Below are positions 225 to 63,629 of a stretch of DNA of 64,000 nt, piece by piece. A program made the position numbers and the translations under genes. Positions within the stretch are counted from its first letter, which is position 1; the number at the start of each line of letters is the position of its first letter. Under the pieces are notes generated by a model. That model did not search any database, was not told the origin of the DNA, and was given only the letters and a program-made list of their open reading frames with translations. Source of the DNA: Hydrolagus affinis (lineage: Eukaryota); contig JAAILG010000832.1 in the NCBI GenBank assembly GCA_012026655.1, forward strand, positions 1-64,000, given 5' to 3'.

Positions 225-529
225 TAATAATAATCCTTGCATTTGATATAGCATTTTTCACGTCTTCTAGACGTCTCAAAGCGCTTCATAGAACACTGTA
301 TACTGTAAAGTGAATTGACTATATATTCGTGGGCGAAACGTGGCAGCCAATTGCGCACAACAGTGTTCCACAAACAGTCGTGGATTGAAATGCCCAAATT
401 ACTGTATATGTTTGAGGGATTATTATCAGTTGTGTGTGGTAAGGAAACTTGCCCAAGGTTTCACCCTGCCTGAAATTGGATCCTGGTATCTTGTAAGGCA
501 AGTGCTCTAACCACTGAGCTACAGGATTC
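225..529 (-). mobile_element. tRNA-headed Deu-domain SINE, full length (young family)
   Basis: A box TAGCTCAGTGG, degraded B box, central GTGCGCAATTGGCTGCC, L2-like tail ending in (ATT)n; colinear with many other copies in the window. Confidence 0.85.
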
Positions 530-1270
530 TACTTTGCAGTATATTCTGTGAAGTGCTTTGAGGTGTCTCAAAGGTACAATAAGGTGCCATATCAAATGGA
601 AGGATTATCATCATTTTTATTAAAAGACAGTGGAAATTGATTAGAAAGACACTTTCCCCGGGAGAATTAATAGTAGTCACCTAGGCAACTCACACGTACT
701 TCCTGGATACCAATAGAACATTGTATTTGTCCTTGTAGAGTCCATTCTGCAATTCATTTGCCCATTTCCTTGATGTGGTGAGGATGTGCGACCCAGATAT
801 ACGAAGGGCAGAAACAGAAGTTACCAAGTTAATTCTTTCTATAGATTTTGGTGCACAAATAAATAAACAACTATAAAAGGGGAAGAAACTACAGTCTTCA
901 GGAGACATCGGGATCCAGGAACACCACACTGTCCAATTAAAACAGATAAAGTCTAACAAGGTTGTCCGATTGTTTTTGAAAAAATAATTAAATGACCCTT
1001 TTACGATTCAATTTTTTAATGTTATTAAAGATACAATGTTTAGAAAGTCAGTAGAACTTTGCTTGCACACAGAACAAATTTGCTCCCAATAGATTAGCAG
1101 CTGGAAATGATACAAATTTGCTTTAAGTAACATAAATGGGATATCATTCTCTCACCGACTAATCTTTCAAGGCCTCAAAGCCCCTGTTGTTGCAGCCATA
1201 TTCCTTTGGCTGAGGTAAACTGGGCTGTGATTGCTTGGCAGGAGCTGCACAGATTTGGAGAATCATATGT

Positions 1271-1312
1271 ATTATGTAAATTGTATATTCAATTATGTAA
1301 ATTGTATATTCA
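1271..1312. repeat. 21-bp tandem duplication ATTATGTAAATTGTATATTCA x2
   Basis: Directly visible. Confidence 0.95.
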
Positions 1313-1599
1313 AGTGCTAGAAACACATGTTAAATTATTGACGATTACCTTACGTAACACAATGATTCCACATTGCAGGTTGATTTCTGGAAAAAAATCC
1401 CCAACTTTCTGACTGGATTACAACATATGTTCATTTGTGTGGAAAAATACTCAAGATAAAAATATTTTTGAATATTAAATCTTGTAAAAGATTTCGGATG
1501 ATGCATATGATCAATATAAACATGTGGAATCATATGCTACATGAATAATGCTGAACTAAACTTCCAAATTGATGTAAACAACACTATATAGTAAAAGAT

Positions 1600-3042
1600 G
1601 ACTAAAAAAATAAGTTTATTAGTAAACATAAGGAAATGCATATTTTACAGGAAAAATCGGTAAATTATCATTTTCTCTTTGGGCTTAAGAAGTTTGTGTT
1701 AACTTCAGCAATGGGAAACCCACAGCACAGTAAGGAATGAAAAACAATATTTTCCCTTTAAATCATGAAAAGTTTATTATGATCAGGTTATAATCTTAAA
1801 GTTAAAAGAGAAGCACTGATAAGTGTTTTATACAAGCATTCTCATTAGTGAAGTGAAAAGGCTAGTGTTAACAACTGTCAAGCAGAGCTAACATACATTT
1901 AACAAGGATACTTTCTTAGCAGGCTTTTCTCACCTCTGCGTAACAGAGTATCTTGATAGTGTTTGTGTATTCCCTTATACGGTTAAAAACTAGGGCAACC
2001 AGCACATGACTATGTTGAAATCCCCAAATTTTCAAGTGGGCTGTTGAGACAGCAGTGGAAATGCAAGTTAATGCATTTCTGGTTAACATTAAAATATATA
2101 TTAAAGCTGAACTACATTTCTTGGTCAGAACAAAGTAACACATAAAATTAGACATTGCTGTAACACATACCAGATACATCAATATTTGTTATCAAACACA
2201 GCAAGTGCAAACACAAAATAAAAAAAGGGACAAAAATCATGTAAAAGTCTATGAACAGCAATCTTAGCAGTTGATATTTTGCATTTAAGTATTTTTTCTT
2301 AAAGATACAGGTTATTGTGTCGGGATTCTAAGCAGGTCCATAATACACTACAGTGTGGAGCCGCTTTGGAAATGTTCTATTTGCACATTTTTTGTACTTT
2401 GAAATACTCTGATGCCCAATTAAGACTGTCTACTGACATTTCTGACCACAAAGTGCCTTGAAGGCATAATCTCATTTGATCCAGTAAGACCATCATGGTA
2501 TATTTAAGTCACAAAACAAATAAAATTTTGTTCTCTTTAGCATAAAATACGATCAATATTGCACAAGATGATGCATCTTTTTCATAAGCAACCAATATCC
2601 CAAGGGCTCCCAATTCCATTCTCTGAAGTATTTAATGTAAATAAATTATGATGTATGTATTTCAAGTTTAAAAAGCCAACAAAGAGGAAGCTATATAATA
2701 CTGTCGACATCTTTTCTTCCCCTCGTCCTTTCATGAGCCTTCGCCCATAGTACCATATGGCAATGATAATTATATTGGAAAGGTTTGGCAAAGGTAACAC
2801 AGACAAAGGAACAGATAAAATGATCCCCTTCCCCCCGCCCCACCCCCCCACCCTCCCTCTCCCCACTCCCATCCCAATTCAGTATGAAACACGCATCTCC
2901 ACCACTTATCATGGCTGACTCCCATGTCATTCCCCACATCAGTCCCTTTGTTTTCATCAGCAGGCCAGACTGAAGTCTTGTTGACTGGAGCCACCTGGTT
3001 TGTGATATGAACCAGAAAACTTCATTTTGTTCATAGTGACAG
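1600..3042 (-). other. EVI5: Putative EVI5 3' UTR with candidate AATAAA signals at 1773-1778 and 1615-1620 (true end unknown)
   Basis: AT-rich stretch with no recognised repeats after the stop codon; tttatt on + strand at these positions. Confidence 0.5.
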
Positions 3043-3381
3043 TCACACAGTGGTGGAGAAAGAATCCTTCTGTTTCTGACTCCCTGTGCAGACCTGCGAG
3101 CTGCTCGTCTGACTGCAATGATCGGAAAGCATTGTTCTGTCCTCGTCGTCGCTGTCTGAACTGTCTTCGCTGTCCTTCTCAATAGTTTCCATTTGTACAT
3201 TTCTGCTGTGGTGCTGAAAATGGTGTGGAACCTCCAAGAAATGATTGACTCTCATAGAATCGGTTACGAGATCTTCATCAGAGGAGTGAAATGAGTCATC
3301 ATCTACCAAGTGGTTCACAATGTGGATTCCATCAAAAGTGGGTGGGCCTGAGAAGTTTCTCTGTCCTTTTAGGCACCTGAT
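3043..3381 (-). CDS. EVI5: EVI5 last coding exon 20 (339 nt including TGA; IRCLKGQRNFSGPPTFDGIHIVNHL...DSFSTTV*)
   Basis: aacag|ATC acceptor; GIHIVNHL, SFHSSDED and terminal STTV (class I PDZ-ligand-like) match EVI5. Confidence 0.95.
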   Translation of the reverse strand: MRCLKGQRNFSGPPTFDGIHIVNHLVDDDSFHSSDEDLVTDSMRVNHFLEVPHHFQHHSRNVQMETIEKDSEDSSDSDDEDRTMLSDHCSQTSSSQVCTGSQKQKDSFSTTV

Positions 3382-6300
3382 CTGTTGAAAGAAATGATGA
3401 TTATTTTTCTTCTGCTGTTCAGTACTTGGCCCCCTTCTAACCACATTTAACTCCAGCCTACTGCCGTGGTTTTTTTTTGTAAACAGTTTGAAAAGATTTT
3501 CATCAAATCTACCATTTATATTACGATGAGTCGAATGACATAAAAAATACTACAGTATATCCTGCTAGCTGCAGCTTACTTTCCTTATGATATGAGCCAG
3601 CATTCAATGCAATATCAGATTTAGATTGATGATTGTACATACCAAGTAATCTTAACAATTTGTCAAATTATTGCTTTAGTTCAATTTAAAAATTTACATA
3701 AACCAACGCAAATGAATTTGGCTGTACAGGCAATCAACATTTGATCTTCACCTGATTAGGGTAGAGACAGATGCAAACCACCTAGCTGCTATTTTAATAT
3801 CGTTTTCATCCTCAAATTTTCCACCCTACCTGCCTTAGCTTATGATTTGCTGCTAAATGTGCAATATAAATTGGCGTTGAGCCCTGGAGTCTTTATTGAA
3901 GGAGTGGCTTAGTGAACTGGCCAAGAACTTTCAAGTACTGTACTTATTTTTTTTTAAAAACATTGAAGATGATCATAACATTAGACCTTCAATAACATTA
4001 AAATGAAACGCCCCTTTCAGTTTGCTGTGCACGCACAAAGCTCTAAAAATCAAGCACCGGCGATTATTTGAGTTGAGAACACAATATGCTCTTTAATAAA
4101 ATATATATAGTTTAAAACTTTGATCGGTTTGCTCTGCATGCACAAAGCTGTAAAATCATGCCCCAGTGTGAAATGAGAAGTGAAAATAAACTTGCATCAC
4201 TTTTTTATACCAATGGTATCAAAGAATCTCAACTCCCAGTAATACGTATGTATTCTAGTTACATGAAAGTGAGATCTCACTTCTCCCTCTATTATTCATT
4301 ATACTTTTGAAACAAAAAAAATCTGACTCAAGTTAATAACACATTTGCCTTTGGAACCTCATGTCCACATGTCTGATAATCAAACAATTCAGAAGTGCAA
4401 CATAAACGATACTAAAAATTCCAAATGTAAGTTGTATAAAATGTTTGCTGGCTATCACAAAAATATAATTAATAATACAGGAGATGGGTAGAGCAAATGT
4501 ACAGTATCACTCGCTGGTTAGATATGTAAAGGTGATTTGAAGTTTATGAAGGTACAAGACAAAACCTATTCTACAAGGAAGCAGTTAGAAAGGGAAGTTA
4601 TTAATATTAGTAAAGAGCAGAAAAATCAATTATTAGGGGTTCTGGTAGAGGGTGTGGTGCAATTTAAAAAAAATCTATCACGAGATGACTATTTACAAAA
4701 TATATTACTTTTTTTAAGAAAAAAGTACTCTCATGAATGTACAAAAGTACAAATCTTCTTTGGTAGACTGAAGAGTAAACATGAACACAATTGCAAAGAA
4801 AAAAAGTGGAAAAATATTCAGCGTTTTAATCCTACAAAAGTACTGCATATGAAAACACAGTTCAAAATTTACACAAACACAATGTTGTTGGAAGTCAAAT
4901 GAAAAGATTGAATACTTCACAGCAGAATAACCGATCAATTAACCAATCTGGACCAGTATTAAAATAAAAAATTAGGATGCAGTATGATGAGAATGATTAG
5001 ATTCTTGTCAGAGGAGGGTTTTCACTCATACAAGTAAATAAAAAGGGAGTTTATGGATTGCACCAGTTAGCAATGGATTGGGGACATACACCATTACTTA
5101 CCCGAAGGAGACTGCCAATCAGTTGTGCATGTGATTGAAGGAGGGAGTAAAAAGACATTAATTTAGAAGACATCACACTATCCATACCACTGTGCTAAAG
5201 AGTCAATAAAGTTAAGCAGGGACAAGGTTCTTGAATAAAGAACTTTACGTAAAAAGGTGCATCGATCCACTGAAACAGCAGGGCCCAACAGTAATGTGTG
5301 CCCATAGTTAAGTTTAAAGACAGCTACTGCTAAACACGATTTAACTAGTGCCAGCAAACCATTCGACAGAGGCGCCATCACAGCTGAGCCAAACTCAGTC
5401 TCAACCAAAACCTACATTTCCAGCAGCAATCACTAGATAATTTGTTTCCAGACCTTCTCCATTACTTTCCCATTATTACCAGTGTCCCACTGCTGTTCTC
5501 CCAGCAGTATTTAATTCATTGGTTAAATAAATTGGATCTTTTTAATCAATTTCATGACAAATAATGTTTAAGAAAATTCAAAGTACAATATTTCCATTAT
5601 TCACTGACGCCTTGTGTGCCTGGAAAGAAAACAGCTGTTCTCCCTCTAGTGTGCAACATACTCAAGATTGTCTGGAAATTGCATTAAAGAGTGAAAAATA
5701 GGAGCAAACGGGTAGGTTCAAGCAACAAGTCACGGTTTGGGTGAACTGCCCCAAACAACAATTTTTTTTGTTTAGAAAGCCCTTCTTTAAACACCTAAAG
5801 GAGATTTCAGGGAACTGTAGCGTTGTGTTGTATATGGCTGACATATTAGAGATTGTGTAATGTAGGAGTTTGAACACCCCAAGCAACACACGCTCTCGGA
5901 GGAGGCAAATGTGAGAGAAGATAACCCGAAACCCTACCTCAACATTGACCAATCTAACTGATAAAGAGGCCTGACCAGGATGAATCTGCATGTGTCCACT
6001 TCTGCTTGATAGATTTCATATTGCAAGAGAGGAAGTGGAGAGGACCACGAGCAGAACACAAGTACGCATTAGATTAAATCTTAAGGCACTGTCATCAATT
6101 CCTGAGTGAGCTTCTCTAACTTTCAAAGTGCCTCCCTTTTCACTGCAATCCATCTCTGAACACACACTGTAAACTGAAAATGTACGGTCAGTGGAACAGC
6201 TCCGGTCACGACACGTTTCAGGGAAAGTGTTCCTGTACCTTATACTGTACAAAGTTTAAAGCAAATAAGGAAATGGACTGCCAGTGAATTTGCCGTTACG

Positions 6301-9300
6301 CTGCTTAAGATTTTTTGCTGAAACTCGCAGGAACATAAAATGCTTTTCAGTTGTGGCACTGCTGAGGAAACAAAATCTCACTGACAGACAAATAAATTTA
6401 ATACTGATTCAGATAATTGAAAAATTAATTGCATATCAATAAACACCATGACACTAGGAATGGGAGAAGGATCTTTGATAAATCCCAGAGTTGCGTTGGT
6501 AGCACATCAGATTTTTAACCTGACGTTGTTACAGTGATCTGAGGGAGCACGGTTTAAGTCCTTGTTCCGCACCCTCATACAACAGAACAGGCTTCGAGAG
6601 GCTGAATGACTTCCTACTGTTTATATCTACTCAATTAGACAAAAGGTAATCTGCTCCATTGTGATCCCTTTTCCATGTAATCTACTCCGAAAGGAGCAGC
6701 GTCCCAAACAGGTTCCTGATAGTATTTGCTGATGTGAGATACAAAAACGGTGATTGTTATATCAAAGAGAACAAATAAATATTATCAGTAAGATTTTTTT
6801 TAAAAAAGTTATCGACATGAGATGATTTCCTTATTTCTTCAAACCAATCAATGGAAAAATATCTAAATGAAACCTTATTAACAACTCGTTGCAATATTAA
6901 GAAAAAAATGCAATCATACTATTTTGTGACTGGATGAAGGACATTACTTTCCCTCCTTCTGCTGCTAGGCCAGAAAATACTTAGTGTAAATTTAGGAAAA
7001 AAAACTATGTTTTGAAGGTTCAACAATCTACATGGTTGCATCATTATTATTCTTTCGTATACAATTTGAGTCAGAACATTGCCAATAGGTTTGTCACTGG
7101 AGTTTATAGCTTCTAATGCACTGTTACATTTTTCTGTGGTTTCGCATCGCGTGAAAAGAAGTCCACAGGAAGTCCATTTTACTGAAGAGTGGACAAAGTA
7201 CATAGATTACACCCGAAAAAAGCAAGCAATGCATCTCATATTCTTAATCTCATATTCCACATTTCAAGTCTAGATATTAATGCTTAAATCAAGCAACAAG
7301 AACGATTAAACCTAACTGCTCAGCATGTATCATCCATCTAGCATCTCTTATGTTCTTATACATAGTACATAGGTAATTTGGGACAAATGTACATGCGACC
7401 ACCAGGAAGGTGGAAGGCGAACTAACTGGACCTTGTCTTTTCTTATGTTTTTATGATTCTGAAGAATCTTAATAGACATTTAATGGGCTAGAAAGAGCGA
7501 CAAAATCTGCTCAAGTGTAAACGTGACAAAAATTAGCTATGTGAAGAACCTGAAACCAGAAGGTTTCCAGTGAATCAGAACAGGAAACCAGAATAAAGCA
7601 CACTTTGATAGGTCATGACTTCTTGATAGCTGTAAAATAGAAAACCATGATTTGAGTCCACTGGCTAGTCTGCAAATTTGTCATCACATGAAAGGTTAGA
7701 TGATTGAAGTCTCTAGCTGAAAAAGCTTTAAAAACATAACCACCAGTTCTCTATTTGACATTCACCTATGTGTGACCTTGATTTGCAGCACAAAAGCCCT
7801 TACATTTGAAATGATTAGAAATGAGATTTTGTTTATCATTAAATTGACCGCCCTAAAAATTGTGCCAATGTGTTGGACCCTGCAATTGTTAACTGAAAGC
7901 AAAAGTAGAAGGAATAAAATTTTCACAAAGTCCTAGAATAATGGGGTTTTGGAATGCTGGCAACATTATGCATCACTGGCAAAGGAGGAAGCGCTGGCTT
8001 GAAATCATGGCCTCTCTTCCCAGGCATGTGGACAGGCACAATATGATCGAGAACTGTGCATGTTTCATTCTCAGAAGATAAAGGTTATGGTGCTCGGAGG
8101 TAGGTGGTGTAAGGAATAGATATAAGGACCATATGTTACCCAAACTTTTACATTGGTAAAGGCTTCCCCTCCCCATGCTTGAGGGTAAGTTTGCACATGG
8201 AGGGAATCTGAAAGCACTCTGTTAATGACGAGAAACTTCCAGGTAAGAGGAGGAAGAGGATGACACAGATAGCAGTGTGATCCTCTCTTTAATCCCTGGC
8301 CTCACATGACAACACAGCTCTGCAGCCAGCATTACAACTGCAAAACTCCACTCAGATCAGATCAAGGTATCTCAAAGATAATTTGACAATACTTGATGGA
8401 GCTCTAACCATGGTAGAGATGTAGATGATAGATTATGATAAGTCTGAATGCACAGTGAGGACACCAGAAGAGGGGAGTGGGGTTCTCAAAGTGGCTGCAA
8501 CAGTTTTGTGGTTTGAGTAGAATGAGGCATTGGCCTCCCTTTTCCTCCCCCTGTACCCCACTATTTGGGATCACACATTCTTTCCTTCTTACACAAGTAG
8601 AGGATGCACTGAATCAGGTTAGAGAGCGTACAAGACATCACCGGTTAGATACTGGAAGGAGAAAAGTCAGCGATGTGTGCCTGGCTACAGGTAGTGTTAA
8701 GGGATGTAAAAGTGACTTGAAAGCAAGTGTGCCTCTACTTCCAGCAGTATAACCATGACAAGTTTTATTTAATTGATGCAACTATTTCTCTTTGGCTTTT
8801 CAAATAAATCACATTTTCTAACCCAATAATAATAAACCAGATAATCACACAAATATAAAATCTATAAATCTTGACCCCTTCAAGATTTTTAAAAATTTAA
8901 ACTATTTATTTAGAAACAAATTACTCAGGCTCTGAAAAATATTCACCAGTAGTTGCAGGATAATCTTACTTTAAAATTACAACAATATAAAAAAAACAAC
9001 TACTTTTAGATAACATTTTAAAACTTTTGAATTTACATGCACAACCAGATTGTAATAATAATTCTTGCATTTAATATAGCGCTTTTCACATCTTATCGAT
9101 GTCTTAAAGCGCTTCGCAGTATATACTGTAAAGTGAATTGACTATATTTGTGGACTAAACGTGGCAGCTAATTGCGCACCGCAGTGTCCCACAATCAGTC
9201 ATGGATTGAAATGACCAATTTTTATTATTGTGTTTTTTTTGGACGGATTATTATTAGGCAAGTGTGTGTGTGTGGAGTAAGGAAACTTGCCGAAGGTTTC

Positions 9301-12300
9301 ACCCTGATCTACCAGGATTCGAACACAGGTCTCAAGCTTGTAAGGCAAGTGCTCTAACCACTGAGCTACAGGAGCTCCATTGGGTTCCATGTACATTGTA
9401 GCACATTCTTGTCATTTAAATTATGATCTGTTCTCAAGAAAGTGAACAATACTCTGTGCATCAAGTATTACTGCTCAAAATATATAAAATAAGTGGAGGC
9501 AGAATGCATTAAGACCTAGCATTTCTATGCATCAACGCAATTCAATTGTATTACTATATACATTTTACTTTAAAACAAACACTGGTCACTCCGCAAGTTT
9601 CAAGTTTGCAAGGCAATTTCCTGTTGACAAACTTCCTTTCCTTGGTGACGCTTGCTATACAGAGCAGCAAGCCTCATAGCTGTAGATACTTTTGAATCCA
9701 CTGTAAATTTGAGTGATACTGTATAGTTCAAACCTTAATTATTGCGGTTGCCTAACTGTCCAGTGCCTTGGGAAGGTCTCCTGACATGCTACAAATGTAA
9801 TTTGTTGTTCTTGTTGTTAACAGCAGAGGTGCATTTCCCCATCTACTAGAAAGTTTTGAATGCAATTGTACAATGCAAATAATCATATTCAGTGCATTTA
9901 AATAAATCAATTTAAGCAACTTTTCATTCAGCTCATTTTGTTATGTGCACAAGTTATCTTTAAACAAATCAAAATATATTAAACTCCTCACTTATTTGAA
10001 CAACTTTTTAAACTTCAGGGCTTTTTCCTCAATTCTATCCATATCCTTAACTATCAATTGTGGCATGGAAAGGGAGATAGATAATCATCCAATTAAAGGA
10101 GATTAACTAACGTGCAAATGTTTCCTGCGTTTTACCGATTGCAACAATAATAACATCAAATTGCATTTACAAAGCACCTTTCAAGTCAGGAGGATATGCC
10201 ATGGTGATGGACGGTGAAATGTTTGCACTCTGAGTTGAAGGTTGGAATCCAGAGGACAAGGGGAAGATGACCGAAAGCATGTCTGTGAGGGGGGTCTTAA
10301 GGTGGGCTTTGAAGGAGGCAAGCGACGAGGTATGATGAGGGGCCTCCGAGATGGAAGTTCCAGAGGGTTGGGGCAGATCGGCTGAAGGCCCATGGTGCAA
10401 CATAGGTGTCCTACATTCTTAGTTTCTCCCTTCTCTTTCTTATTTCTATTAAAACTTTAGCAATTTTTAGAACAAAAAAAAATTGTGTGAAGCTTTTACC
10501 TTGCCCTTTTCAAAAGAAAAACAGGCCTAAGATTGTTCCCTACAATTGTGCAAAAAATACCTGGAGCTGGAATGGGAATGGGCCTAAACTTTTCCATTGC
10601 CACTGTTTGACGATCTATCAGTTTTCAATAATTTACGTACACTCGGCCAATTGGGCTGATTGCATTGGCAAGGTGATACCAATGATTCATTCTTTAATTC
10701 ATATTGGACTGAGTAATAGGTCAGTGTGATAGTGGTGTACAGCTACAAGTGCGATTAGGAACTACATTGGCTCAGCCTTTCTGAGTAAAAACGAATAGGC
10801 TCTGGAAACACCTAATGTCCCCAGTGTCCTCCCATTAATTTAGTCCTACACAACTACTGTAAACAATGTATGTTAGACAGTTGGAGTGTACTTGGTAGGT
10901 TTCAGTATAGAAACTGCAAAAACAGAAGCAAACAAGAAATTTTAATGCTTTTACTAATGTTACTAAAAATCCTTGAATAAAGTCATTGTTTAACACCAAA
11001 CTTTTGGTGTTATGCAAAAGCTTAATTCTATGCATTTAAAGTGGAATCACACGAACATACAGCTGACCTAATAAAACTGTTCATTATGATTTTTGTCTCT
11101 CCACAACTGCACCACAAATCCTCCACCTTTTTCCTCAAAATTGCGTGCATGAATGTCATGAAACTCTTCAGTTTTTTGCATCTTACCACAAAAAAGATAT
11201 TATTTATTAGCAATACCCCGAGTGGAGTCTAACACCGTGTCCATCGCTCTGACAAGCAAACAAAGAAAAATTGTGTTTTGAACACTTTGCATTGTGTAGG
11301 CTAGGAAGAGGCAACCAGAGCTGATGCATTAAGGTTTGGGTGCCTGAAAATCATGTGACCCTTGTGAATGCTATCTTATCACATCACAGGTTCCTTAGGC
11401 TGACCACAACCACTTAAATCAGACTAAACCAGCGAGGTGACTCGGGATTTTTGACACGTACCAACAATCTGATACAGTTTCTGGTCACTGAGCAGCATAC
11501 AAACCTCTGCTGCATCGAGTGCAAATCTGATCATCACTTCTTTGGCTAACTGCACTTCTAAGATAGGGTGAAATGGAGCACATAACGTGAAGATTTACTG
11601 GTGCATTTTTTTCAATTCAAAACAAAGTGCGTTTTCCTTTTTGATTGGGGCGGGGGAGGAGATAAAACTCGATTCACAGAAATACTTTCCGTTCCAAGTT
11701 TGCTTGTCCCAAACCGTCTTGGTAGATATCAAAATTGTTAATGCTTTGTCTTACCTATTGATAACCAGGAAATAATTCTAACATATTAGCAATACAAGCA
11801 AATATTTTTTTTGCTTTCATTTTCCGTATCTAATGCATTAAGCCCTTTCAAACTGCAGATTTGTCAGTGGCTTAGCAAATCTACATATCAAATGCCATAG
11901 ATGTATAGAACAGGAAGTTCTAAAGTTTGAACCATAGTCTGTGTTGATCACAGCTAGGACAGCAGGGGAGGTTGGCTTCAATCAAGCTCAGCTTCCTGAG
12001 ATAGGGTTCCCATTTCTGAATCCACCTTCCATTGCTGTATACTTGTAAACAAAATTGGACTCAGTTTCAAGAACCATCACCCACCCACTCCCCGTCAAAT
12101 AGCCTTCAATATTCAGTCATTTATGAATAATAATAATCCTTGCATTTGATCTAGCGCTTTTCATGTCTTCTCTCAAAGCCCTTCACAGAATATACTGTAA
12201 AGTGAATCGAGCACAGCAGGGTCCCACAAACAGTCGTGGATCGAAATGACCAATTTATTATTATTTTTCTTGCGGGATTATTATTAGGCGTGTGGAGTAA

Positions 12301-51863: not shown

Positions 51864-51944
51864 TTGACTGACAGTGTGAGTCACCGTATTCTTCACCCAT
51901 GAGAGAGTGGAACTCAATTTCTCTGTAACCTTGTCTGTCGCCAC
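51706..51944 (-). CDS. EVI5: EVI5 exon 2 (239 nt; ATG at 51863, MASQVASP...EEQNR; the upstream 81 nt read VATDKVTEKLSSTLSWVKNTVTHTVSQ in frame)
   Basis: Acceptor catcag|GTG, donor AG|gtaag; translation matches EVI5 N-terminus. Confidence 0.93.
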
Positions 51945-53181
51945 CTGATGAGACAAACATTTGATGACATTATCATCATTCAAAATACCATTCGCTCAAT
52001 TAGCAACAGATTTAAGGACTTTAGTGCTGGTTTCCTTTGAATCTGCAAAATCAGCTAGAATGTGCAGGTAAACATGTTCTGACGAAGGGTCGTGCACCCG
52101 AAACGTTGAGTTGCTTTCCTTTCTTCATGGATGCTGCCTGACCTGCTAAATTTCCCCAGGAACTTGTGGTTTTAGTGCAGGTAAACATGTTGGCTTTACA
52201 AGTATTGACCTCACAATTATCTAGATTATCAAGACAGAAACTTTCATGTAGACTTTCGCATAAAGGAAAAAAAGTAAAACTCACATAAGTTGTATCGGTT
52301 GGGTCCTTAACATTTAATATGATTTTGAGAAGTAACAGTTATAGGCAAACTTGCATAAATCGTACAACATCCAATGTAATCAATGCACTGTGCATGCATT
52401 CTTCAATGTAGCCAGTAAGTGATGTGTCCACGGGTTTCCATGATTTAATGAAGCCTGCGGCGTTACAAGCTAGGAAATTATTTGTTTAATAAAATGCACC
52501 TAGTGCAAAGAAATCTAAGTGTTTCTGGTAGGAAACTGACTGTGACTCGCATGCATGTACGACTTAAGACGATTAGCACTCCGGAAAATCTACCCAGCAA
52601 AAAGGACACTATATAAATGCAAGTTGTTGTTATTGTTATTGTGAAATGCTCTGAGGCGCCGTCTGGCGTGGAGGGCATTATATAAATCCAAGTTGTTGTT
52701 GTTGATTATACAATTTATGAAACTAAAACTTAGAGTGTTACTGTAATCACTTTGGAAAGATGCCAGAGGGTATCAGCAACCATAAAAGTATATTCTGGTA
52801 TGTCATTGCTGTCATCAGACAAGAGAAAAGCCCTTCTTGTTACCAGAGGTCGAAATAAGATTTAGATAGCAGCATATTCTGGAGTCTCACTTCTCCAAAC
52901 ATCAACATCAACAATATGATACATCAACAACAAAATTACGTTTGCATAGCGCCCTTTGAACTCAAGTCTTTCACTTGCAAGGAGAGAGCTCTAACCAATG
53001 AGCTACAGGATTTCTCACAACCTTATCCTTTTCTGAAAACCCATCTTGGATCAATAAAATATTACACTAAAAGGTTCTCAAAAGAAGTTTGTAATATAGT
53101 TCTATTGTTATAAAATTAGAACATCCCCTCAGGCACTGCTGAATATTAAAGGCAAGACTTGTAGAAAACATAACAGTGCCG

Positions 53182-53438
53182 TGACATCTCAAAGCGCTTC
53201 ACAGAATATACTGTAAAGTGAATTGACTGTATATTTGTGGGCGAAACGTGGCAGCCAATTGCGCAATGTCCCACAAACGGTCGTGGATTGAAATGACCAA
53301 TTTTATTACTGTGTTTTTTTCTGGACGGATTATTATTAGGCGTGTGGAGTAACGAAACTTGCCCAAGGTTTCGCTCTGATCAACCTGGATTCGAAATTGT
53401 AAGGCGAATGCTCTAACCACTGAGCTACAGGAGCTCCA
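53182..53438 (-). mobile_element. Same young SINE family, lacking the extreme tail
   Basis: A box intact, body colinear with other copies. Confidence 0.85.
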
Positions 53439-55299
53439 CTTTGAAAGCAAAATTAATAATTCAAAATAACAAAATGTTAACAGGCAGCAGAAGTAAGGGG
53501 ATGATAACATAAATTGTGGGCATTATTAAAGTTCTTCAGATTTAACAACTATAAAATATGTCATAATTACTGCTGAAACATAAAAGCTATTTCTTATATT
53601 AGCTACATTTGCGTCAGAAAGTAGTTACTTATCCCTGAACACAACGTCAGCTGGATCTCACCTCCTGATGGACAGACAAAACTGAGAACTATTCAGCTTT
53701 ATATGAAGGATGAATGAACAAGGAAAATTAGTTGGCTTCCAGGGATCATGTAATTTGGAATCAGTGAATAGTGCACAGAGTCCCACTGTTACAGTCTGAC
53801 AGTCTCTATTATGCGTACGCACCATTAAAGTCTATTTTTCCCACAATAAAAAAAAATCTGGATATTTATGAGGGCAAATCTTGATGCCAAAAAGCACCAG
53901 ATTTCACCATAAATCTGAAATTGATTTAATTTTCTATCCATTTTAAAAGTGGTCAGAATACACCATAATTTCTTTCACAGCACAACTCTTTCTCTCAAAC
54001 CACTGGCAGCAGTTATAATTGATTCTGATTCCAAGGAGCATACTTTAGCATGAAGAATACATTCTCAAAGACACCACCTGTGCACTGTTGCAGGGTTCAG
54101 AAGCCTGGTGAGCAGGCAATTTGCAAGTCGGTTTAGGATTGTGATATGCATGCATCTCAGAGACAAGAAATAGCTGAAAACATTGGAGAAGCCAGGGGGA
54201 GTATTAAGAGAAAATAGTTTTTCTTAGCAATTAACTTTCAGCAAGCAATATGGATAATTTCAGTGATAATGTATATCTATAGAATTTGGTAAAATATAAC
54301 AGAAGACAGAAAAGCCGAACAGCTATGTGGAAGCAGTCAGATATACAAAAACAAATTTACATTTATATAGCTGGCGTCTTTCATGTCTGGGTGATATCCT
54401 AAAGCGCTGCATAGTTCAGGATTTACATCCTTCAGGTGTTATTTGCCAGATGTAATTTGTCACTTCCTGATACTTCAGTTGAGATCAGATCAAATGATCA
54501 TACTGTATTGGAAATCACCCGCCAATAATCCACGTCACAGGCTACTGCATGCTAATTTTAAGTGTCCTCCAGATTTCCACTTTAAGTCACAGCAAGCTTA
54601 ATAAGAGTGTGAGTAAAATGAAAGAGAACTCAACAGTTGTTACAATAAAGAAGCAACAAAACAGGCAGTAGCTGGGAAACAGTTTAGACAACATGTTCAG
54701 GAAAGGTGAGGTAGTTTGGAGATTGATGGCTCTGCTTTAGTTTTGAACTTCATCTCATTTCCTATGAATAGAAATGAATGCTGCAAATTCTGTAAGGCTA
54801 CTGAAATGTTTCAATTCAAGAAAATATAATGTGTATCTGGACAGAAATTTAAAATATTTCTGTTCTAAATCCTTCATCAATAACGCAAATTACCATCATT
54901 ATTAAACCAGTAAAATGTCTACAAATACAGGACCTAATCTCTATTATGGGGGAGGTGAGTGGAAAGAGATAAGTATAGTTCTAAAATGAATATCTTATCC
55001 ATAATCTTTGCCCATGTATGAGTAAAGGTCAGTGGGAAAGGTAACTATGGAACCACACCACCAATAGAAAGAAAAGGAGATTCAAATGCCTTCAGGAGAT
55101 GAGGACGAGGGGAGAAAATTAGCAGGGAAGAAGAAATTAATGTCTGAGCACCTGCATTATTTAAAGGCCTTGTTATTAGCCACAGGCATCCTTCTTGGCA
55201 TAGACATGAAAGAACAGATGGTGTACCAACAATTTTAAATCAGCCTTTTATAAGGTCTTAATCAAGCACCCCGAGTTAATGCTGTTGTTGTTTTAATCC

Positions 55300-55369
55300 C
55301 ACTTAACTGAAAACTGAGATGGCACAAAGCAATCTTTCCTGTTGTGCTATCTCAGTTTTCAGTAAAGTG
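55300..55369. repeat. Inverted repeat, 28-bp arms (26/28), 14-nt loop
   Basis: cacttaactgaaaactgagatggcacaa / ttgtgctatctcagttttcagtaaagtg. Confidence 0.95.
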
Positions 55370-56754
55370 ACCATGTTAATGATAAAGGACCATGATTTTA
55401 AAGAGCTAGCTCCTGGACCAGTTGGAGTACTGCAACTCATAAAGCACTCATACAATGTTCCAGAAACATGATATTCAAAGGCAATTCAAGACTCTGATCA
55501 ACATTTCCAATACAACAATCTACTCCTAAACGTAATATGAAAGAACATCACAAATTTAACATAAAGAGGCACATAATCAATCAAATGATTAGTTTATGAA
55601 TCTGCCATTTAGTGTACACTTTTAGAGTACACTCAGGTTGTCCCAACACAAAACATCTACCAAATAGCTACCAGCATAGAACATTGCTATCAGCTAAGCA
55701 CCAGAGCAAGTTCTGGCAGGTTTGTGGAAGTAACTACATACAAGTCCTGACTTACACATTCAAAAACATATTTTGATAAATATCAATAGTTAGAAAAGTA
55801 AACCTTCTGTCTGCATAAAAACTTTCCGTGCATGTAAAAAACAAGCAACACAGTAAAAAAAACTAAAACTATTTTTCTTCATCCTCTTGAATGTTTTTCA
55901 ACCATTTCCTGAAGAAACAGCTGCATTCTGATAAAAACATGTTGAGAAGAGAAATTAGCAAGAAAATGAACAATGTGTTTGTGAACTGCAATTATACATG
56001 AACTTACATCAATTGGCATGTCAGCATTAATTTCTTAATCAACACGTTGTACACAGTAGTGACAAATTCATTGTTTCCCTTGACTAATAAACACATAATT
56101 TAGATGAGCAAAATGTTTACAGCACTGAAGGAGGCCATTCAGTCCCGTATGCTTAATTCTAGCTTCCACTTGAGCTGCCTACTCTGCTTCCCATGTTCTC
56201 TCCATATCATTTCTTTTTTTTTCTCAACTATTTAAGCAATGTGGATTATATTAAAGAATAAAGTTTTTAAATAACATAATTAATTGAATATTCTAGCCGA
56301 GGTAAACAAAATGAACAATTCCAACCATTATGAACCATTTTGGACCAACAAAGCAATTATGTCAGATCACAAGTATGTCTTCTTGTTTGGCCTTTCAAGC
56401 ATGTGGGTCCTGTGTTTGACCTACAGTGATTCCAAAAGGGTGTTATAATATTATAATAAATACAGAGATGTGGATATAGAGAGGGCACAATGACAAGTGG
56501 CAGATGTAATTAAATGTGAATAAATACAATTCACTGTTAGACGACAGGATAAAGCACTGAAGTGGGATATGGATGGATACATCTCTGAAACGATGAGCAA
56601 AGTGAAGCCGCAGAGGAAAAAAGTAAAAATACTCAGATAGAGTGTATGCACTGAGGGATAAACCATAAATTCCAAGGAAGCAAGTCTGGTGGTTCACTAT
56701 AATGGTGCGTCCACCTAGAATACTCGTGTACATTATTTATTACTGTACGACAGT

Positions 56755-56870
56755 AACGACATCCAGACAAAAAGGATATAGCTGTGGGCAACTAAACAAA
56801 CACATGGGATAAAGAATCGGACTTACAAAGAGAGGCTACAGCATCTGAAATACTTACACTGTTGGGACAA
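56755..56870 (+). mobile_element. Degenerate CR1 ORF2 C-terminal fragment
   Basis: Reads GIKNRTYKERLQHL, similar to the CR1 LSYEERL motif. Confidence 0.45.
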
Positions 56871-59800
56871 ATAAAAAACAGAAGCAATTTTTTCAATTTT
56901 TTTTTACCAAAAAATAGTTACACCATAGTTATCTGGATTTTCTGAAAGGAAGTAAATACATCAAAGGGGGGGAAAAAAAAGTAATTTCCTGCAGAAAAGG
57001 CACTCTGATGGAAACCTGCAACCTCAGATATTCCAGCCAGAGAAGCGATTGGAGCGGTAACGTTAACACGCAGGTCCAGGAAGGATGTCAACTCCCACAC
57101 ACATAATGACATCTTACAAAAGGCAGGCCTGCTATACAATAATGTATTTTTAAATTGGTCTCCTTTGTAAATAGCTAGATTAGCAAGGTTGGATTTGACC
57201 AAGTACTGTAGTTAGGATTTGCAGTGAACAATACTGCAATCACTCAGAATTAAACATAGAGTTCCACTTATTGGAGCCAGCTTTAACCCAGATAGTAGGA
57301 GAGACCTTAACAACCCACTACCCCTACAACCAACCATGGGAATATGTCAATACATCAAAATACTCTAATCATCTTTTATAAAGCTATAAATGCTAAATCA
57401 AAGGTTAAAATGACAATCATATTCTGTAAATTAAGGCTAATACAGTATATTAACACTGCAATTAGTTACATCGCTAACTTAAATAGAGGATCAGTATTCA
57501 GGATAAGGTCTGAAATCAGCATGCAATATACCACCTCTTGCTTCATCAGTACATAAACTGTCATAACAATACTGATTAGGTGGTTCAGAATGCCAATAGA
57601 TGGTAAGTGGGTCAAAAGAAAGTAACAGTATTCTTTATCTTCCTTTTATGGGGATACTGTATCTCAAAGAGTATTTTAAATCAACATAAATTGTTTTAAT
57701 GCAAGTTATAATACAGCTTTAGAATAGCAATTTTACCATCATCACCTTTGCAAAATATTTTCATGGTCAGACATCAAAGTTGAATTTCAAGACAATAAAT
57801 CGTTTCATGAAACTTTTTTGGAGTCATGTCAACATTTAAAATGCTTACAACAAGCAAGCTACCTTTGTTTTGGGATAAATTCAATATACACCATATGGCT
57901 TTTTTTAAAAAAAACTCTTGATTGTGAAGGGTGCTATATAAATGCAAGTTGTTATTGGAGTTGAGTTGGAATGGATATTGCTTTTCGCCCAGTGACTTTT
58001 GCTGTCAAGTGTACATTTTGACATGCAGGAAAATGGTCAGCAGAGATATCCCCAACACTGATCACCCTCAACAAAGAAGTCAATATTCATGTGTTACTAA
58101 TTCATCTGAACAGTATAATGGAAATCCCTCATCCAGATTCAAACATGAAGAATTTTCATTCAAATGAATTACAGAATACGCCATTACCTTCAGGAGTCAG
58201 AATGAGAAAATAAAATGAAGAAAATAAAACATAGAATGCAAACTCCAAATACATTTAGTTGAAAATGAGTGTTCATATGAAAATAACTGATGATTCAACT
58301 TAGAATTTTATATCTTTTCATTTAGAATAATAAAATAGTAAAACAAATAAATAGGAGTCAATATATTGATACCGACAACAACAAAAAACAAAATTACACT
58401 TGTACAGCGCCTTTCACATCAGGAGGACATCCCAAGGCACTGAATGCCTGCTAGCGCATTCCCACAAGTGCTACAGAATCTTGAAATGTCACTTTTTCTC
58501 ATAAAAAATAAATGCATAAGTGCTTTCAAACCAGTGGTTAGATAAAAGAAATGTACTTACATGGGAAGCCATTCTTTTTTTTAAACAATAATCCATTCCT
58601 TGAGATAATATTGCCTTATGTTGTCGAGAAATCTCAAAGGATATACCGGTAGTGTAAAGTAGATTGACTGTGCATTTTGTGGGTGTATGGGCAGCCAATC
58701 TCCACAAACCTTGATTGAGTGAATGACCAATTTTATGGGGCATTTGATACAAGGAAGTGATTTGAAGCAGATTTCCCTGGACTGGTGTGGACGCCACTTC
58801 TTGACGTCCTCCCGAGTGGCCAAAGTAGTGACCTTCACACAAGGCTTCATTTCCTCAGACATTTTCTTCCAAAGCATCACACCCTCCTGTCCCTAAAGAC
58901 TGACTGATAGTATCTCAAATTTTAATAACCAGGTGTTGAGAACTGGTTGCCCACCTGCATTGGTGGCTGCAGACTGAGGGAGACAACAGTGGGAAGGAAC
59001 TTAGAAGCCAAGGAATTCTCAAGATAAAATGGATTGTATAGAATTCAAATTCACTAGGGATAGGTTTCTAACTAGTTCTACCAACTAGTGAAATGACAAA
59101 ATTCCAAAATTTTAATGATTTCTTTTGCCTCATCACCAAGTATCTAAAAACATATTTGAACCTCTAAAAAATATTGTGGTTTAAACAGCAGCAATTTAGA
59201 TAAATGAAAAATGTCCTGACAAGCAGAAACATTCTCATTCTAACAAGCCATACTTATGACTCATTTAATAATCCAGTCAGTTTATATTTTACCGTAGATT
59301 ATGAAATTTTACCAGGCAACCACTGAATACGTAACCTAACATTAGTATCTTCTGACTGCAGTAAGCATAAACACAGTATTGCTGGTAGAAAGCTTTTTAG
59401 CGTTTTAGTTTTATTTTAGCAATCCAAATTCATATAGAATTCGGCTGTAAATAACATTGAAAACTGCAGAAACAAACACTTAGGAGTACTCCTGTGCACT
59501 TGGCTGGTACTGAAATTTTACTTGACTGATTCCTCCGCATTGGTATGCAAGCCAAAGAGTTGCAGGCCTGAGCAACTGTTATGAACCTACTCACTAATAT
59601 CAGCTGAGTGGCTCTTTTCTAGCTTTCAGAGCTAACGTGGCAAGTCTCCAAGAAGCCATCTCCAAGAAGGTGAAAATGAAATTTGATCCAATAAACAGGA
59701 GTGATCTTTAACAGCTTCCCCCACATTTTTGGAAAAATAGAGCAGTGGCTTAAAAGTACTTTCTCTTAGTCACATTCCCTTTAAATTTGTGATATTTGAA

Positions 59801-60964
59801 AGTATTCACAATTTACAGAGACATAGCGAGAGAATATTACAATATATTTGCAGATGTGTTTTCATTCTGCAATTTTAACAGTAAGTATGGAGCTCATTAA
59901 TTACTGAACTGTCATTTTTCCTCCCTTCTACCAATCCGATGGACCAAACACCAAATCTTAGCTGTTAAAATTGGCAATCCTTTTTATTTTAACACCAAAC
60001 TCCAGCATTGATATATCCCTGCTTCCACATTTACTAGATCTTAAAGCTAAATAGCCATCATCTTAGCACAAGACTCCACCCAACATTACTGGATGGATAG
60101 TAAGATCCAGGAAGTTACATCATAGTTAATTAAACAATCTTAAACAAAATAAGTGTACAATTTGGTTTAATATCTCACAGACAACAACGCTTGAACAACT
60201 GTTATGCTCAAAAGTTGAGTGTGTCTGCCAATTCCAGTCTTCAGACAATAATTACAGTATCACTTCCTCTCAACATGCTGGCTGACCCTGTATGATACAT
60301 GCTGAGAGTGGTAAGAACAGTTTGTACAGCTATGAGATTTTTGATAATTTTACGCTACTAAAAGATTTGTACGAAGTCAGCGTACAGCTGCCTGATTATA
60401 CAGCTGACATTTTAGAGAACCACAGACATTTCTATTTCTCTTTTAAACTTCCCCCAGAAACAACACAACTAAGTAAATTCATATGATCTGGATAGTAACA
60501 ATCATAGGTTTGAGAGAAACCTGAAGGGCCTTCCCCATGACTCAGTAGCTCTTATTCATGCAGATGAGGAAGGTCCCAAATTCAATCCCTAGTTATAATA
60601 AGTAAATGGATTTCAGATAAGACAGAAGATTTGATCAGTGTGGCTCAGAACAACATTATTTATCCAAGGTTCTCATTACTCATCATTAATCACTAACCAC
60701 TGATGGAATTTGTACATATGCATGTGGGACAATCGAAACAAAGACAATCCTCTGCTGCCATCCTCCCACTACCCAACCCGCAATGTCAAACAGCCCACTG
60801 ATGATATATTATGTGTAGACTTAGAACTGAAGAAATTAGTACTTGGGCAAGGCATTGGAATGTTGCTTCAATGAGACACGTCGTCTACATAGTAGAGAAG
60901 CTACATACAACATAACAAATAAAGACAAAGAGGCACTAACGACTATCTACAGTTAGAGAGTAAC

Positions 60965-61215
60965 TTTCACGTGAAAGTGCTTTACAAAATCAGAATAATT
61001 TGAAACACAGCAAGTGTTACTTTGTAGGCAAAAGCTGCAGCTACCTTTGCACCATCATCTTCTGACAAATGACAATGTGATGAATACCCAATCAGTCTAC
61101 CGGTAATCGTTTTAGAATGAATTGGGTGAGAGAGGCATGTTAGCCCAGACAACCGAGAGGCATTTCCTACTCTTCTTTGAAATATTAACACAGGGTCTTT
61201 CAATGCCAGCTGGAA
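60965..61215 (-). mobile_element. Old, diverged Deu-domain SINE relic
   Basis: Diverged Deu core (gtaggcaaaagctgcagctacctttgcac...acaatgtgatgaatacccaatc). Confidence 0.5.
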
Positions 61216-62194
61216 TCATTAGCCAGCCCTATCTAAGTGTTCATTGTTTTTGGATCTTAGTTTAAGGACTCATTCAAATAAGCAATGATCTGGAATGATT
61301 TCTTGCACATAATATAGTGGCTTATCATATTAAAATATTGTAAACCGCTTAGCAAAAGTAGTTAATTTTAACACAAATCCACAAAAATCCAAATCTCAAT
61401 GGCACAAAAAACACACGCACTGTAGGTGGATATGTAAAAAAAACTAATCTTTGAATCTCTAATTAAAAACGATTTGATAAAAATTTAAATAGTATCTGTA
61501 CATTTATAAATGCTGCGTTTAAGAAATCTTTCGGCATTTAGACCAATTGCTAGTGTAGCCCTTAAAAGAATTTTTAAAAGCAAAAGGATTTGTTTTTAAA
61601 ATAGAAGTCAAGATTATTGCTGCCCAATGCAGCTTGAGGACTTTGTAAAACTGTTAATTCCACAAATGTAAATGGTGTGCTGCCACATGGTTTGGTTTGT
61701 TAAGGACTGAATAATAACTTGGGGCGGGTGTGGGGGGTAAATCACAAACTTAAGAGGCTCAGATATCAAGATACAAGAGCAAATATTTAAATCCTAATAC
61801 AATGTACATTTTGGTTTAAGTACTGTTTTGCTCTTGTTTATCTGATGATGATGCTTAATCAATCAGTGCTTATTTCAACAAGCTTACTTCCTGCATATAT
61901 GTGCAAGAAGCACTTCTGTCATCACTTCTCAAAGGAAATTATGGCTGTTATTTTTTGTTCATAGCGTGCATGAACAGTAAGCAAGAAGTGATGTCAACAT
62001 ACACAGGCAAGTGATGTTAGTGGCAACCTGATGACTCAGAAGCCAACAATGTTTTCATGCCTATATTGTCCACCTGATGTGAAAGGCGCAATACAAATGT
62101 AATTTGTTGCTTTGTGGACACTGAGATATTGGACTGAACGTGACTTCATTATAACAAGGTTTTTCTGTATATCCAACAACTAAAGGGTTTATAG

Positions 62195-62380
62195 TCAAGA
62201 CTGATCCCATTCTCTGAAACTCTATCCCGGAGTCTCTCCGAATCATTCCCTTCCTCACTTCTTTCAAGGTGAATCTCAAGGCCTTCCCCCCGGCTCCCAA
62301 CTCGGGTGACCACCAGGGCATTAGGACAGTCTCCTGGCATGAAAAGGGCTCTATGAATATATATTTGTACTGTTGTCTTG
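62195..62380 (+). mobile_element. L2-clade LINE 3' fragment (extra solo tail at 62065-62110)
   Basis: ctctgaaactctatccc...ttcaaggtgaatctcaag followed by a diverged tail. Confidence 0.6.
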
Positions 62381-62559
62381 TATCCTGTCTCATAGTAAAG
62401 AGTGATATGTCTACATAAAATAATAATTTAATCTAATAATCTAATATACCGCCTATAACTTCAAAACATCAGTTTGTTTTAAATACTCTTAAGCATGCGT
62501 CAGACATCCAATTGACCGGAAAAAAAACACAATAATTAAATGTGGTAACTATGAATTTA

Positions 62560-62860
62560 TAGGACAAAATGGCTGGCAATTTGTGCTCAACAATGTCCCA
62601 TAAAACAAACATGAGGTGAATGACCAATTTAACAGGAATTTTGGGGGGACATGACACCAAGGGAAACTCCATTATCCTTTGTATAGCTCCTTTAACATTC
62701 ATTGAAACCGTCACTTAAGACCTTGGTGTGATGCTTAGCCAAAGGACCACATCTCCAACAACAAGGTGCTCCCCCAACACTGCTTTGAATTGTCCATCTT
62801 AGTGGCCCAACATGGGACATGAAAACTTTCTGACATTGAGGTGAGAGCATTACCAACTGT
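62560..62860 (-). mobile_element. Old, diverged long Deu-domain SINE relic
   Basis: ggcaatttgtgctcaacaatgtcccataaaac core and gagagcattaccaactg head remnant; resembles the reverse complement of 12497-12866. Confidence 0.5.
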
Positions 62861-63629
62861 CAAGCAAACTGGCCTGAGAATTTCGAGAACATAAGATAAA
62901 TCAAAGACTACTCATTAGGTTAGAGGAAGTTGGGGTTATTAACAAGTCTGAAAGTGGGAGGGAAATCCCCATGTGGTTTAATTTGTAAATTCCAACACCT
63001 TCTGACAGCTGTGCTGCACTACACTGACATTTCACAGAGGTCAGTGATTCTAAATAGCAATATTTTTTAAATGTGCTTCACAATGAATCCTACAACTCCC
63101 CCCCCCCCCCCCCATCACCACCACCAAAACGAAGCCATCCACCAAGTACAGTACAGTACAGTAGATAGAAACACCTTTAGTCAGTTCAGGTGTCACATGA
63201 ATTACCTACAGTGTTGCAATACGTAATTGACCTTCGTTCAGGAATGACAGCAATGATAATTTCCTCTGTCACAAGTTAACCCAAGAACTCTCTTCCTATT
63301 TCACGAAAAGATAACAATTTTTGATGGGGGGGGAGGGGGAATCAAAATAAAACTTGTGTATACAGATCTTCAGTGGCATCTGACAGTGTTTTCTGAAATT
63401 CTGCCCCAGTGATCAGTGATGCTTTTAAACCAGGTCGATGTGGCTCCACCATCCAAGTTTGCAAATAGCAATACTGTGTATACATGTATACAACTGTACA
63501 GTACAGTACTTGTTAAAGCAGCAGCAAGAAGGCAGACTCCAGAACAGCGCTGTCGAGCAACGCAGATTCACTCACTTCAAACACACATAGAGACAGAGAC
63601 ACACACATACACAGAGAGAACTGAACCAT

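Follow-up and report, generated by a model that had tools for sequence, protein, structure and literature searches.

Excision of the transposon Sleeping Beauty (SB), followed by non-homologous end joining, leaves exactly two 7-mers, TACAGTA and TACTGTA (PMC6943129), and for SB the staggered cut and end-joining of the 3-nt overhangs are established (PMC6943129; 10.1101/659086). Another group of TA-targeting elements, Tigger, has been reported in Chondrichthyes (PMC7386202, PMC9219625). The 64,000-nt stretch considered here (Hydrolagus affinis contig JAAILG010000832.1, positions 1 to 64,000; "the window") is rich in the same two words, together TACWGTA (W, A or T), which a sequence-only reading had attributed to excision of SB-type Tc1/mariner elements. 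[quoted passage not shown]

Excess of TACWGTA in the window and the genome

The window contains 50 exact TACWGTA heptamers, against a mean of 8.59 and a maximum of 18 in 100 dinucleotide shuffles. Markov models give 9–19 at orders 1–4 and 33 at order 5, and among the 8192 strand-merged 7-mers the word ranks first at orders 3 and 4, second and third at orders 1 and 2, and eleventh at order 5. The sequence-only reading had counted about 48, some 39 of them outside the consensus position of a short interspersed element (SINE) and the ends of a MITE, and had proposed comparison with a Markov background and control heptamers. Every position it named carries the word, 40 of the 50 are outside repeats, and the controls are rare in the window (TAGWCTA, six; TACSGTA, one).

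The main repeats in the window are the SINE, which is tRNA-headed, and what we take to be the 3' end of a LINE-like family (long interspersed element). Seven of the ten repeat-borne heptamers are at the SINE consensus position (301, 9124, 12193, 23715, 33199, 48167, 53209), one is elsewhere in a SINE (400), and two are at MITE ends. With repeats and tandem repeats masked (55 kb), there are 38 heptamers where 11–16 are expected (orders 2–4), an excess of one per 2–2.5 kb and close to the earlier estimate of roughly one per 2 kb. About 22–27 of the 38 are excess and the rest chance, individual sites being indistinguishable here; these 22–27, among the 40 non-repeat heptamers, are probably excision scars, with no single one proven.

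3551..63508, unstranded: 40 TACWGTA heptamers outside recognisable repeats (from counts, shuffles, masking and flanks)
First half of the 40: 3551, 3936, 4500, 6243, 9717, 10855, 17191, 18458, 27843, 28503, 34405, 38549, 38970, 40641, 40869, 41132, 41137, 43131, 43583, 45358
Second half of the 40: 45485, 45659, 46402, 46616, 47082, 47087, 47977, 51229, 52739, 54501, 56741, 57204, 57441, 57655, 60253, 63147, 63152, 63157, 63497, 63502
23580..24012, minus strand: tRNA-headed SINE with the heptamer in its consensus (carried by seven window copies; not scars of their own)

The pattern extends to a genome sample of 140 stretches (1.4 Mb, 990 kb after repeat masking; the assembly is 1.11 Gb), in which the masked sequence has 452 TACWGTA against 161–195 expected. 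It is the only word that is not low-complexity in the sample's top ten at orders 2 and 3. Scaling the excess of 257–291 by 796 gives an estimate, from contigs over 20 kb, of about 0.2 million exact scar words in non-repeat DNA genome-wide. Words one mismatch away from it were no clear guide to age in masked DNA, as their excess is taken up by the Markov background.

Decayed element ends, words carried by the SINE consensus, or slippage of 5-bp microsatellites could in principle produce such an excess. Such origins do account for the nine or ten repeat-borne sites in the window, and among 371 classified repeat-borne heptamers in the sample 255 are borne by a repeat consensus, with many edge sites being MITE ends. 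For masked DNA this origin is largely refuted: the excess persists after masking, and the sequence behind masked heptamers resembles the terminal inverted repeat (TIR) of the MITE no more than background does (4.15 vs. 4.16 of 17; just 8 of 474 reach 9 or more; one TIR family compared). With the insertion data below, this makes the explanation highly improbable. About 17 heptamers break up (TAA)n tails in copies of the SINE. Such tails are a likely hotspot for scars, which cannot be scored there by alignment.

The word could also be a regulatory site under selection, since it matches a microRNA seed (miR-101/144/199), or reflect mutational bias (CpG decay, palindrome correction). Motifs reported as enriched in salmon 3' untranslated regions (UTRs) do include TACTGTA, as a miR-101/199/144 motif (PMC2774873). 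Against this, heptamers in the window are found in introns or upstream and on either strand (17 vs. 23 on the plus strand), 128 odd palindromes have a median observed/expected ratio of 1.01, and the TACWGTA excess is not approached by any other TA-xxx-TA word. For non-UTR DNA the idea is refuted by the origin of the words as insertions inside repeats, and overall we give it almost no credence. MicroRNA-site selection, CpG decay, general palindrome bias, and decayed MITE ends were all rejected. Conversely, scars in 3' UTRs could create miR-101/199/144 sites.

Five-base insertions, flanks, and candidate nested scars

Insertions at one site in each of two repeats, the SINE and another, were counted by genome-wide exact-pattern searches, with classes tallied by eye. 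At a TATA in the SINE, whose uninserted form is found in 34,352 copies genome-wide, 72 copies have a 5-bp insertion: 46 exact TA-C(A/T)G-TA, 19 one mismatch off, and seven other. The second TA was used in 38 of the exact scars and the first in eight. A TATA in the second, unrelated repeat has 76 copies with five-base insertions, of which 34 are exact, 22 one mismatch off (some possibly decayed tandem duplications), and 20 other, mostly tandem duplications; use of the two TAs is 27:7. Left-end and right-end forms are about equal, with A and T at the center of 24 and 22 exact scars, respectively, at the SINE site, and 20 and 14 in the second repeat. Taking exact and one-mismatch forms together, 65 of the 72 and 56 of the 76 are net insertions with the TA duplicated, vs. 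none of three at a non-TA control position in the SINE, where about 36,000 copies (estimated from a sample) yielded just three five-base insertions, none scar-like. In homologous repeat copies, then, the heptamer originates by the gain of exactly 5 bp at a TA, and not at the non-TA site; this is what the sequence-only reading had proposed to test by aligning such copies. The SINE-site insertions copy no neighboring sequence, which argues against slippage.

Amplification of a SINE subfamily with a single insertion was rejected, as the inserted copies are scattered over a tree of SINE copies (23 of 30 inserted and 35 of 40 uninserted kept; 110 columns, weakly resolved). The inserted label needs 18 changes on this tree, compared with a shuffled mean of 18.3–18.5, and the insertions are taken as independent because these values are alike. 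Inserted copies resemble one another (0.78) no more closely than they resemble uninserted copies (0.78), and both SINE subtypes carry identical inserts. Separately, about 35 SINE copies on small contigs (above C40000) share one identical 4-bp insertion, probably representing a young subfamily or a collapsed duplicated unit.

The outer flanks of 955 half-sites from masked DNA were compared with those of 125 MITE ends after correction for the 40% of half-sites expected by chance. At positions -3, -2, and -1, the half-sites have A in 48%, A/T in 84%, and a purine in 80%; the corresponding values for MITE ends are 58, 88, and 78%. Log-ratios for the two sets correlate at r = 0.89 over -4 to -1 and at 0.71 over -10 to -5. 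The purine-before/pyrimidine-after context is found at 227 heptamers where about 43 are expected, compared with 69 against about 52 for the opposite context, and nearly all of the excess heptamers have a purine ahead or a pyrimidine behind. Because their flanks match MITE insertion sites, this target preference ties heptamers in unique sequence to transposition.

Heptamers are also clustered at one particular spacing: there are 14 pairs 5 bp apart, vs. no more than one at any other spacing up to 30. Nine of the 14 consist of identical units, as slippage would give, but five mix A- and T-centered units, which slippage cannot make. The pairs fit re-insertion into an existing scar, whose second TA is preceded by G. 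Four candidate arrays are found in the window:

41132..41143, unstranded: candidate nested scar (two heptamers spaced 5 bp apart)
47082..47093, unstranded: candidate nested scar (two heptamers spaced 5 bp apart)
63147..63163, unstranded: three heptamers at 5-bp spacing, either nested scars or slippage of one
63497..63508, unstranded: candidate nested scar (two heptamers spaced 5 bp apart)

Elsewhere, one SINE copy (L266, G000:C1595:63214-63248) has, at the TA that was tested, what appears to be a stack of three scars in mixed orientation.

Resident elements and filled sites

The MITE with CAG...CTG ends and a TA duplication noticed in the sequence-only reading is real, and each of its ends, with its target-site duplication (TSD), spells the heptamer:

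33265..33266, plus strand: left TA TSD, within the tail of a SINE copy
33267..34168, plus strand: MITE of 902 bp whose TIRs are short (CAG...CTG); non-autonomous, and related to a Tigger-like pogo element
34169..34170, plus strand: right TA TSD, beyond which the SINE tail continues

Its ends are shared with two other loci, L221 and L222, and 18,125 ends genome-wide match the 21-letter pattern of this family. L222 contains a 2.7-kb element (906-3604) with the MITE TIR at both ends, although its 5' TA and one TIR base (in the CAG) are mutated, and with CENP-B_N, HTH_Tnp_Tc5, and DDE_1 domains in broken frames. For L221 and another locus, L223, no second end was recognisable. There are 32 residues separating the second D from the third (D-32-D) in L221, L222, and L211, within the Tigger range of DD29-36D, which overlaps that of pogoR, reported from only one vertebrate. 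In domains, TIR, TSD, and spacing, L222, the apparent parent of the window MITE, fits the description of a Tigger-type pogo element. Further pogo families (L203, L211, L213, L218, L224) have CAG-starting TIRs of other sequence. L223 (G000:C38324) is a pogo fragment beside a long short-period tandem array, and the top DDE_1 matches, with 480–716 aa open frames and no TIR found, are possibly domesticated genes or young copies.

These residents bear on the proposed source. SB is the best-documented producer of the two 7-mers, and the scars, though real, could be mainly the work of an SB-type Tc1 element since lost rather than of pogo/Tigger elements. A Tc1 family with inverted repeat/direct repeat (IR/DR)-like CAG ends is in fact present (L259-L261): it is young, low-copy, and near-intact, about 1.5–1.6 kb long, with a 317-aa open frame in L259. 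It resembles teleost Tc1 elements and may be a recent horizontal arrival. Against a lost Tc1 source, there are at least 150 pogo-type DDE_1 matches (236 candidates) vs. at least three to the Tc1-type DDE_3 (eight candidates), and the majority of the sample's intact elements with CAG ends carry TIRs that are short and pogo-like. The window MITE is itself unlike SB-type IR/DR Tc1 elements, with an end self-match of 28 bp and a partner encoding DDE_1, not DDE_3. The target of SB is alternating AT, while the scar flanks follow the resident MITE and a Passer-like target. This source therefore seems unlikely, and while the excision-scar part of the sequence-only reading is supported, its attribution to SB-type elements needs correction, the resident CAG-ended elements being mainly of pogo/Tigger type with short TIRs.

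Filled versions of the tested SINE site were looked for among copies in which the TA precedes CAG (first 100 of 338 viewed), 12 odd rows being taken as candidates. Four (L225-L228) proved to be intact CAG...CTG elements of 386–580 bp in the same SINE TA, with four different TIR types, the TA duplicated, and the SINE resuming after the element. None of the other eight (L262-L269) was confirmed as a filled site, L262 and L263 being equivocal. Empty, filled, and scarred states are thus all present among paralogous copies of a single SINE TA, and the inner bases of the scars equal the terminal bases of the four elements using it. As the dominant MITE is absent from the four filled copies, several families contributed. 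The same 100 rows include about 25 with SINE sequence directly after TA-CAG and without net length change and about six with +2, for which double substitution and microhomology-mediated repair of excisions are alternatives.

Among these 100 rows, 44 canonical CAG-type scars were recognised by eye. Since all elements but only half of the scars begin with CAG, this was doubled to about 88, giving a scar-to-element ratio at the SINE site of about 88 to 4–6, or 15–22:1. In the 1.4-Mb sample, 26 rows leave about 22 intact paired elements once duplicates and doubtful cases are taken out; set against about 270 excess words, this is about 12:1. Scar and element counts both miss eroded members, and unrecognised decayed elements would lower the ratio.

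Such ratios could suggest that the insertions come from aborted or reversed integration, with the element removed at once by repair, rather than from excision of resident elements: an excess of scars over residents of 10–20:1 is the reverse of the 2.6–2.8 insertions per excision found for rice mariner elements (PMC4423477). The product, though, equals the canonical excision footprint, with A:T near 1:1, and fast excision after insertion would give an equal result by the same chemistry. We know of no described pathway for an aborted-integration origin, and consider it distinctly improbable.

Excision itself, then, probably produced the words. By analogy with Tc1/mariner chemistry, the transposase would cut 3 nt inside each element end, and end-joining of the two 3-nt overhangs with a central mismatch would leave A or T about equally often. 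A germline scar could then drift to fixation and be re-used as a target, giving nested 5-bp arrays, and several CAG-ended families would have written scars in this way.

Host gene, age, and comparison with described systems

Much of the window is occupied by one gene, on the minus strand, whose exons taken together agree best with the Callorhinchus protein (summed identity 0.85, vs. 0.65–0.79 for nine other vertebrates). This places the host, at class level only, as probably a holocephalan, which a single exon of the gene did not do. No heptamer is inside any of its 21 tblastn exon matches.

3046..51863, minus strand: EVI5 (TBC-domain Rab GTPase-activating protein), 21 tblastn exon matches
28503..28509, minus strand: heptamer starting from the second base of an EVI5 intron (donor of exon 28660-28511)

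If this last heptamer is a scar, splice-donor positions from +4 onward were rewritten, and this was tolerated.

Scar erosion, judged from ratios of one-mismatch to exact forms, is about 8% at the SINE site and 12% (an upper bound) in the second repeat. MITE TIR columns outside CpG and subfamily positions are about 5% off the majority, and SINE copies differ by 13%. Sequence runs related to the window are 1–3% diverged from it. Four of them were compared with the window over 38300-58200; among 12 of 94 indel rows none is 5 bp, in a comparison swamped by SINEs, and the piece of run X3 over 41132-41143 has no 5-bp loss. The scars are mostly older than the splits from these runs, and the activity is old. 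At 57193-57534, runs X11 (otherwise near-identical) and X3 hold 19–20 more letters than the window, either a window-specific deletion or a polymorphism.

Several observations weigh against the excision-footprint interpretation or its attribution to Tigger-type elements. Excision was not observed, and only paralogous repeat copies were compared; as the scars mostly predate the 1–3% splits, no window site was shown to be absent in an orthologue, and site 40641 differs in run X3 by substitution. Insertions of 5 bp are not the most frequent class at the SINE site, where 95 copies have 3–4 bp, many from one apparent subfamily, and 29 have 6–7 bp; these other lengths are mostly tandem duplications or one apparent subfamily, and about 12 of the 29 resemble imprecise scars. 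A hand calculation from the flank profile agrees with the 27:7 use of TAs in the second repeat but predicts near-equal use in the SINE. All-against-all BLAST gap calling (1.46 Mb) gave two scar-type cases among 16 five-base insertions, a small and noisy result, and a site-by-site repeat pass gave six automatic scar calls, some ambiguous, plus about six by eye. With these small-sample alignments weak, the case rests on the genome-wide pattern searches. The dominant MITE family occupies the tested SINE site in 0 of the first 100 of 338 rows, and the family assignment of the scars is less sure than the footprint reading, because the genome also has the young, CAG-ended Tc1 family of IR/DR type. 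In the literature, Passer footprints are described as 0–4 bp (PMC9976928), and no 3-nt CAG/CTG footprint for Tigger was found in sources that largely exclude subscription papers, supplements, and figures.

If excision footprints are nonetheless the right interpretation, it seems reasonably probable that the genome carries about 0.2–0.4 million canonical scars, fixed, at 10–20 per surviving element, and written by Tigger-type transposases cutting 3 nt inside their ends. Since neutral scars become fixed at the rate at which they arise, their number would approximate cumulative heritable excisions repaired by end-joining, and the genome would be an odometer of germline cut-and-paste transposition. 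Most transposition history would then be invisible to repeat annotation, and most heritable excisions would have been healed by end-joining rather than templated repair, with scars seeding nested 5-bp arrays and, in 3' UTRs, ready-made miR-101/144-type sites. The natural rate of germline excision and the healing of the breaks are hard to measure because only surviving insertions get annotated, while scars in high-copy repeats allow the empty, filled, and scarred copies of one site to be counted. A single assembly could thereby provide excision-to-survival ratios, footprint spectra, and the target preference of extinct transposases, as well as a natural prediction for the Tigger cleavage offset. 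The scars would also explain a top genomic k-mer that motif finders could take for a regulatory site.

Among described systems, Tigger elements are like L222 in being about 2.8 kb long, with short TIRs, a TA TSD, CENP-B_N, HTH_Tnp_Tc5, and DDE_1 domains, and DD29-36D spacing (PMC7386202, PMC9219625); the word "footprint" does not occur in the available text of the second of these. Passer targets TA inside a AAGTACTT palindrome, which the scar and MITE flanks here resemble, but unlike L222 it is a DD35D pogo element with a BrkDBD domain (PMC9976928). A rice survey likewise counted natural excisions by comparing homologous sites, and found clean footprints in 8 of 94 excisions and, for mariner elements, insertions exceeding excisions by about 2.6–2.8:1 (PMC4423477), whereas in the present case most scars are clean and they outnumber the surviving elements. 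In the literature, as incompletely covered, no report was found of TACWGTA footprints forming a genome-wide fossil record, or one of this scale, in a vertebrate; the footprint chemistry is known and, for SB, textbook. The closest match remains the SB footprint, with three terminal bases between duplicated TAs and A or T at the center (PMC6943129; 10.1101/659086); that footprint comes from experiments in cells and embryos, while the sites described here, about 0.2 million, make up a natural, fixed record in a genome whose resident elements are pogo-type with short TIRs.

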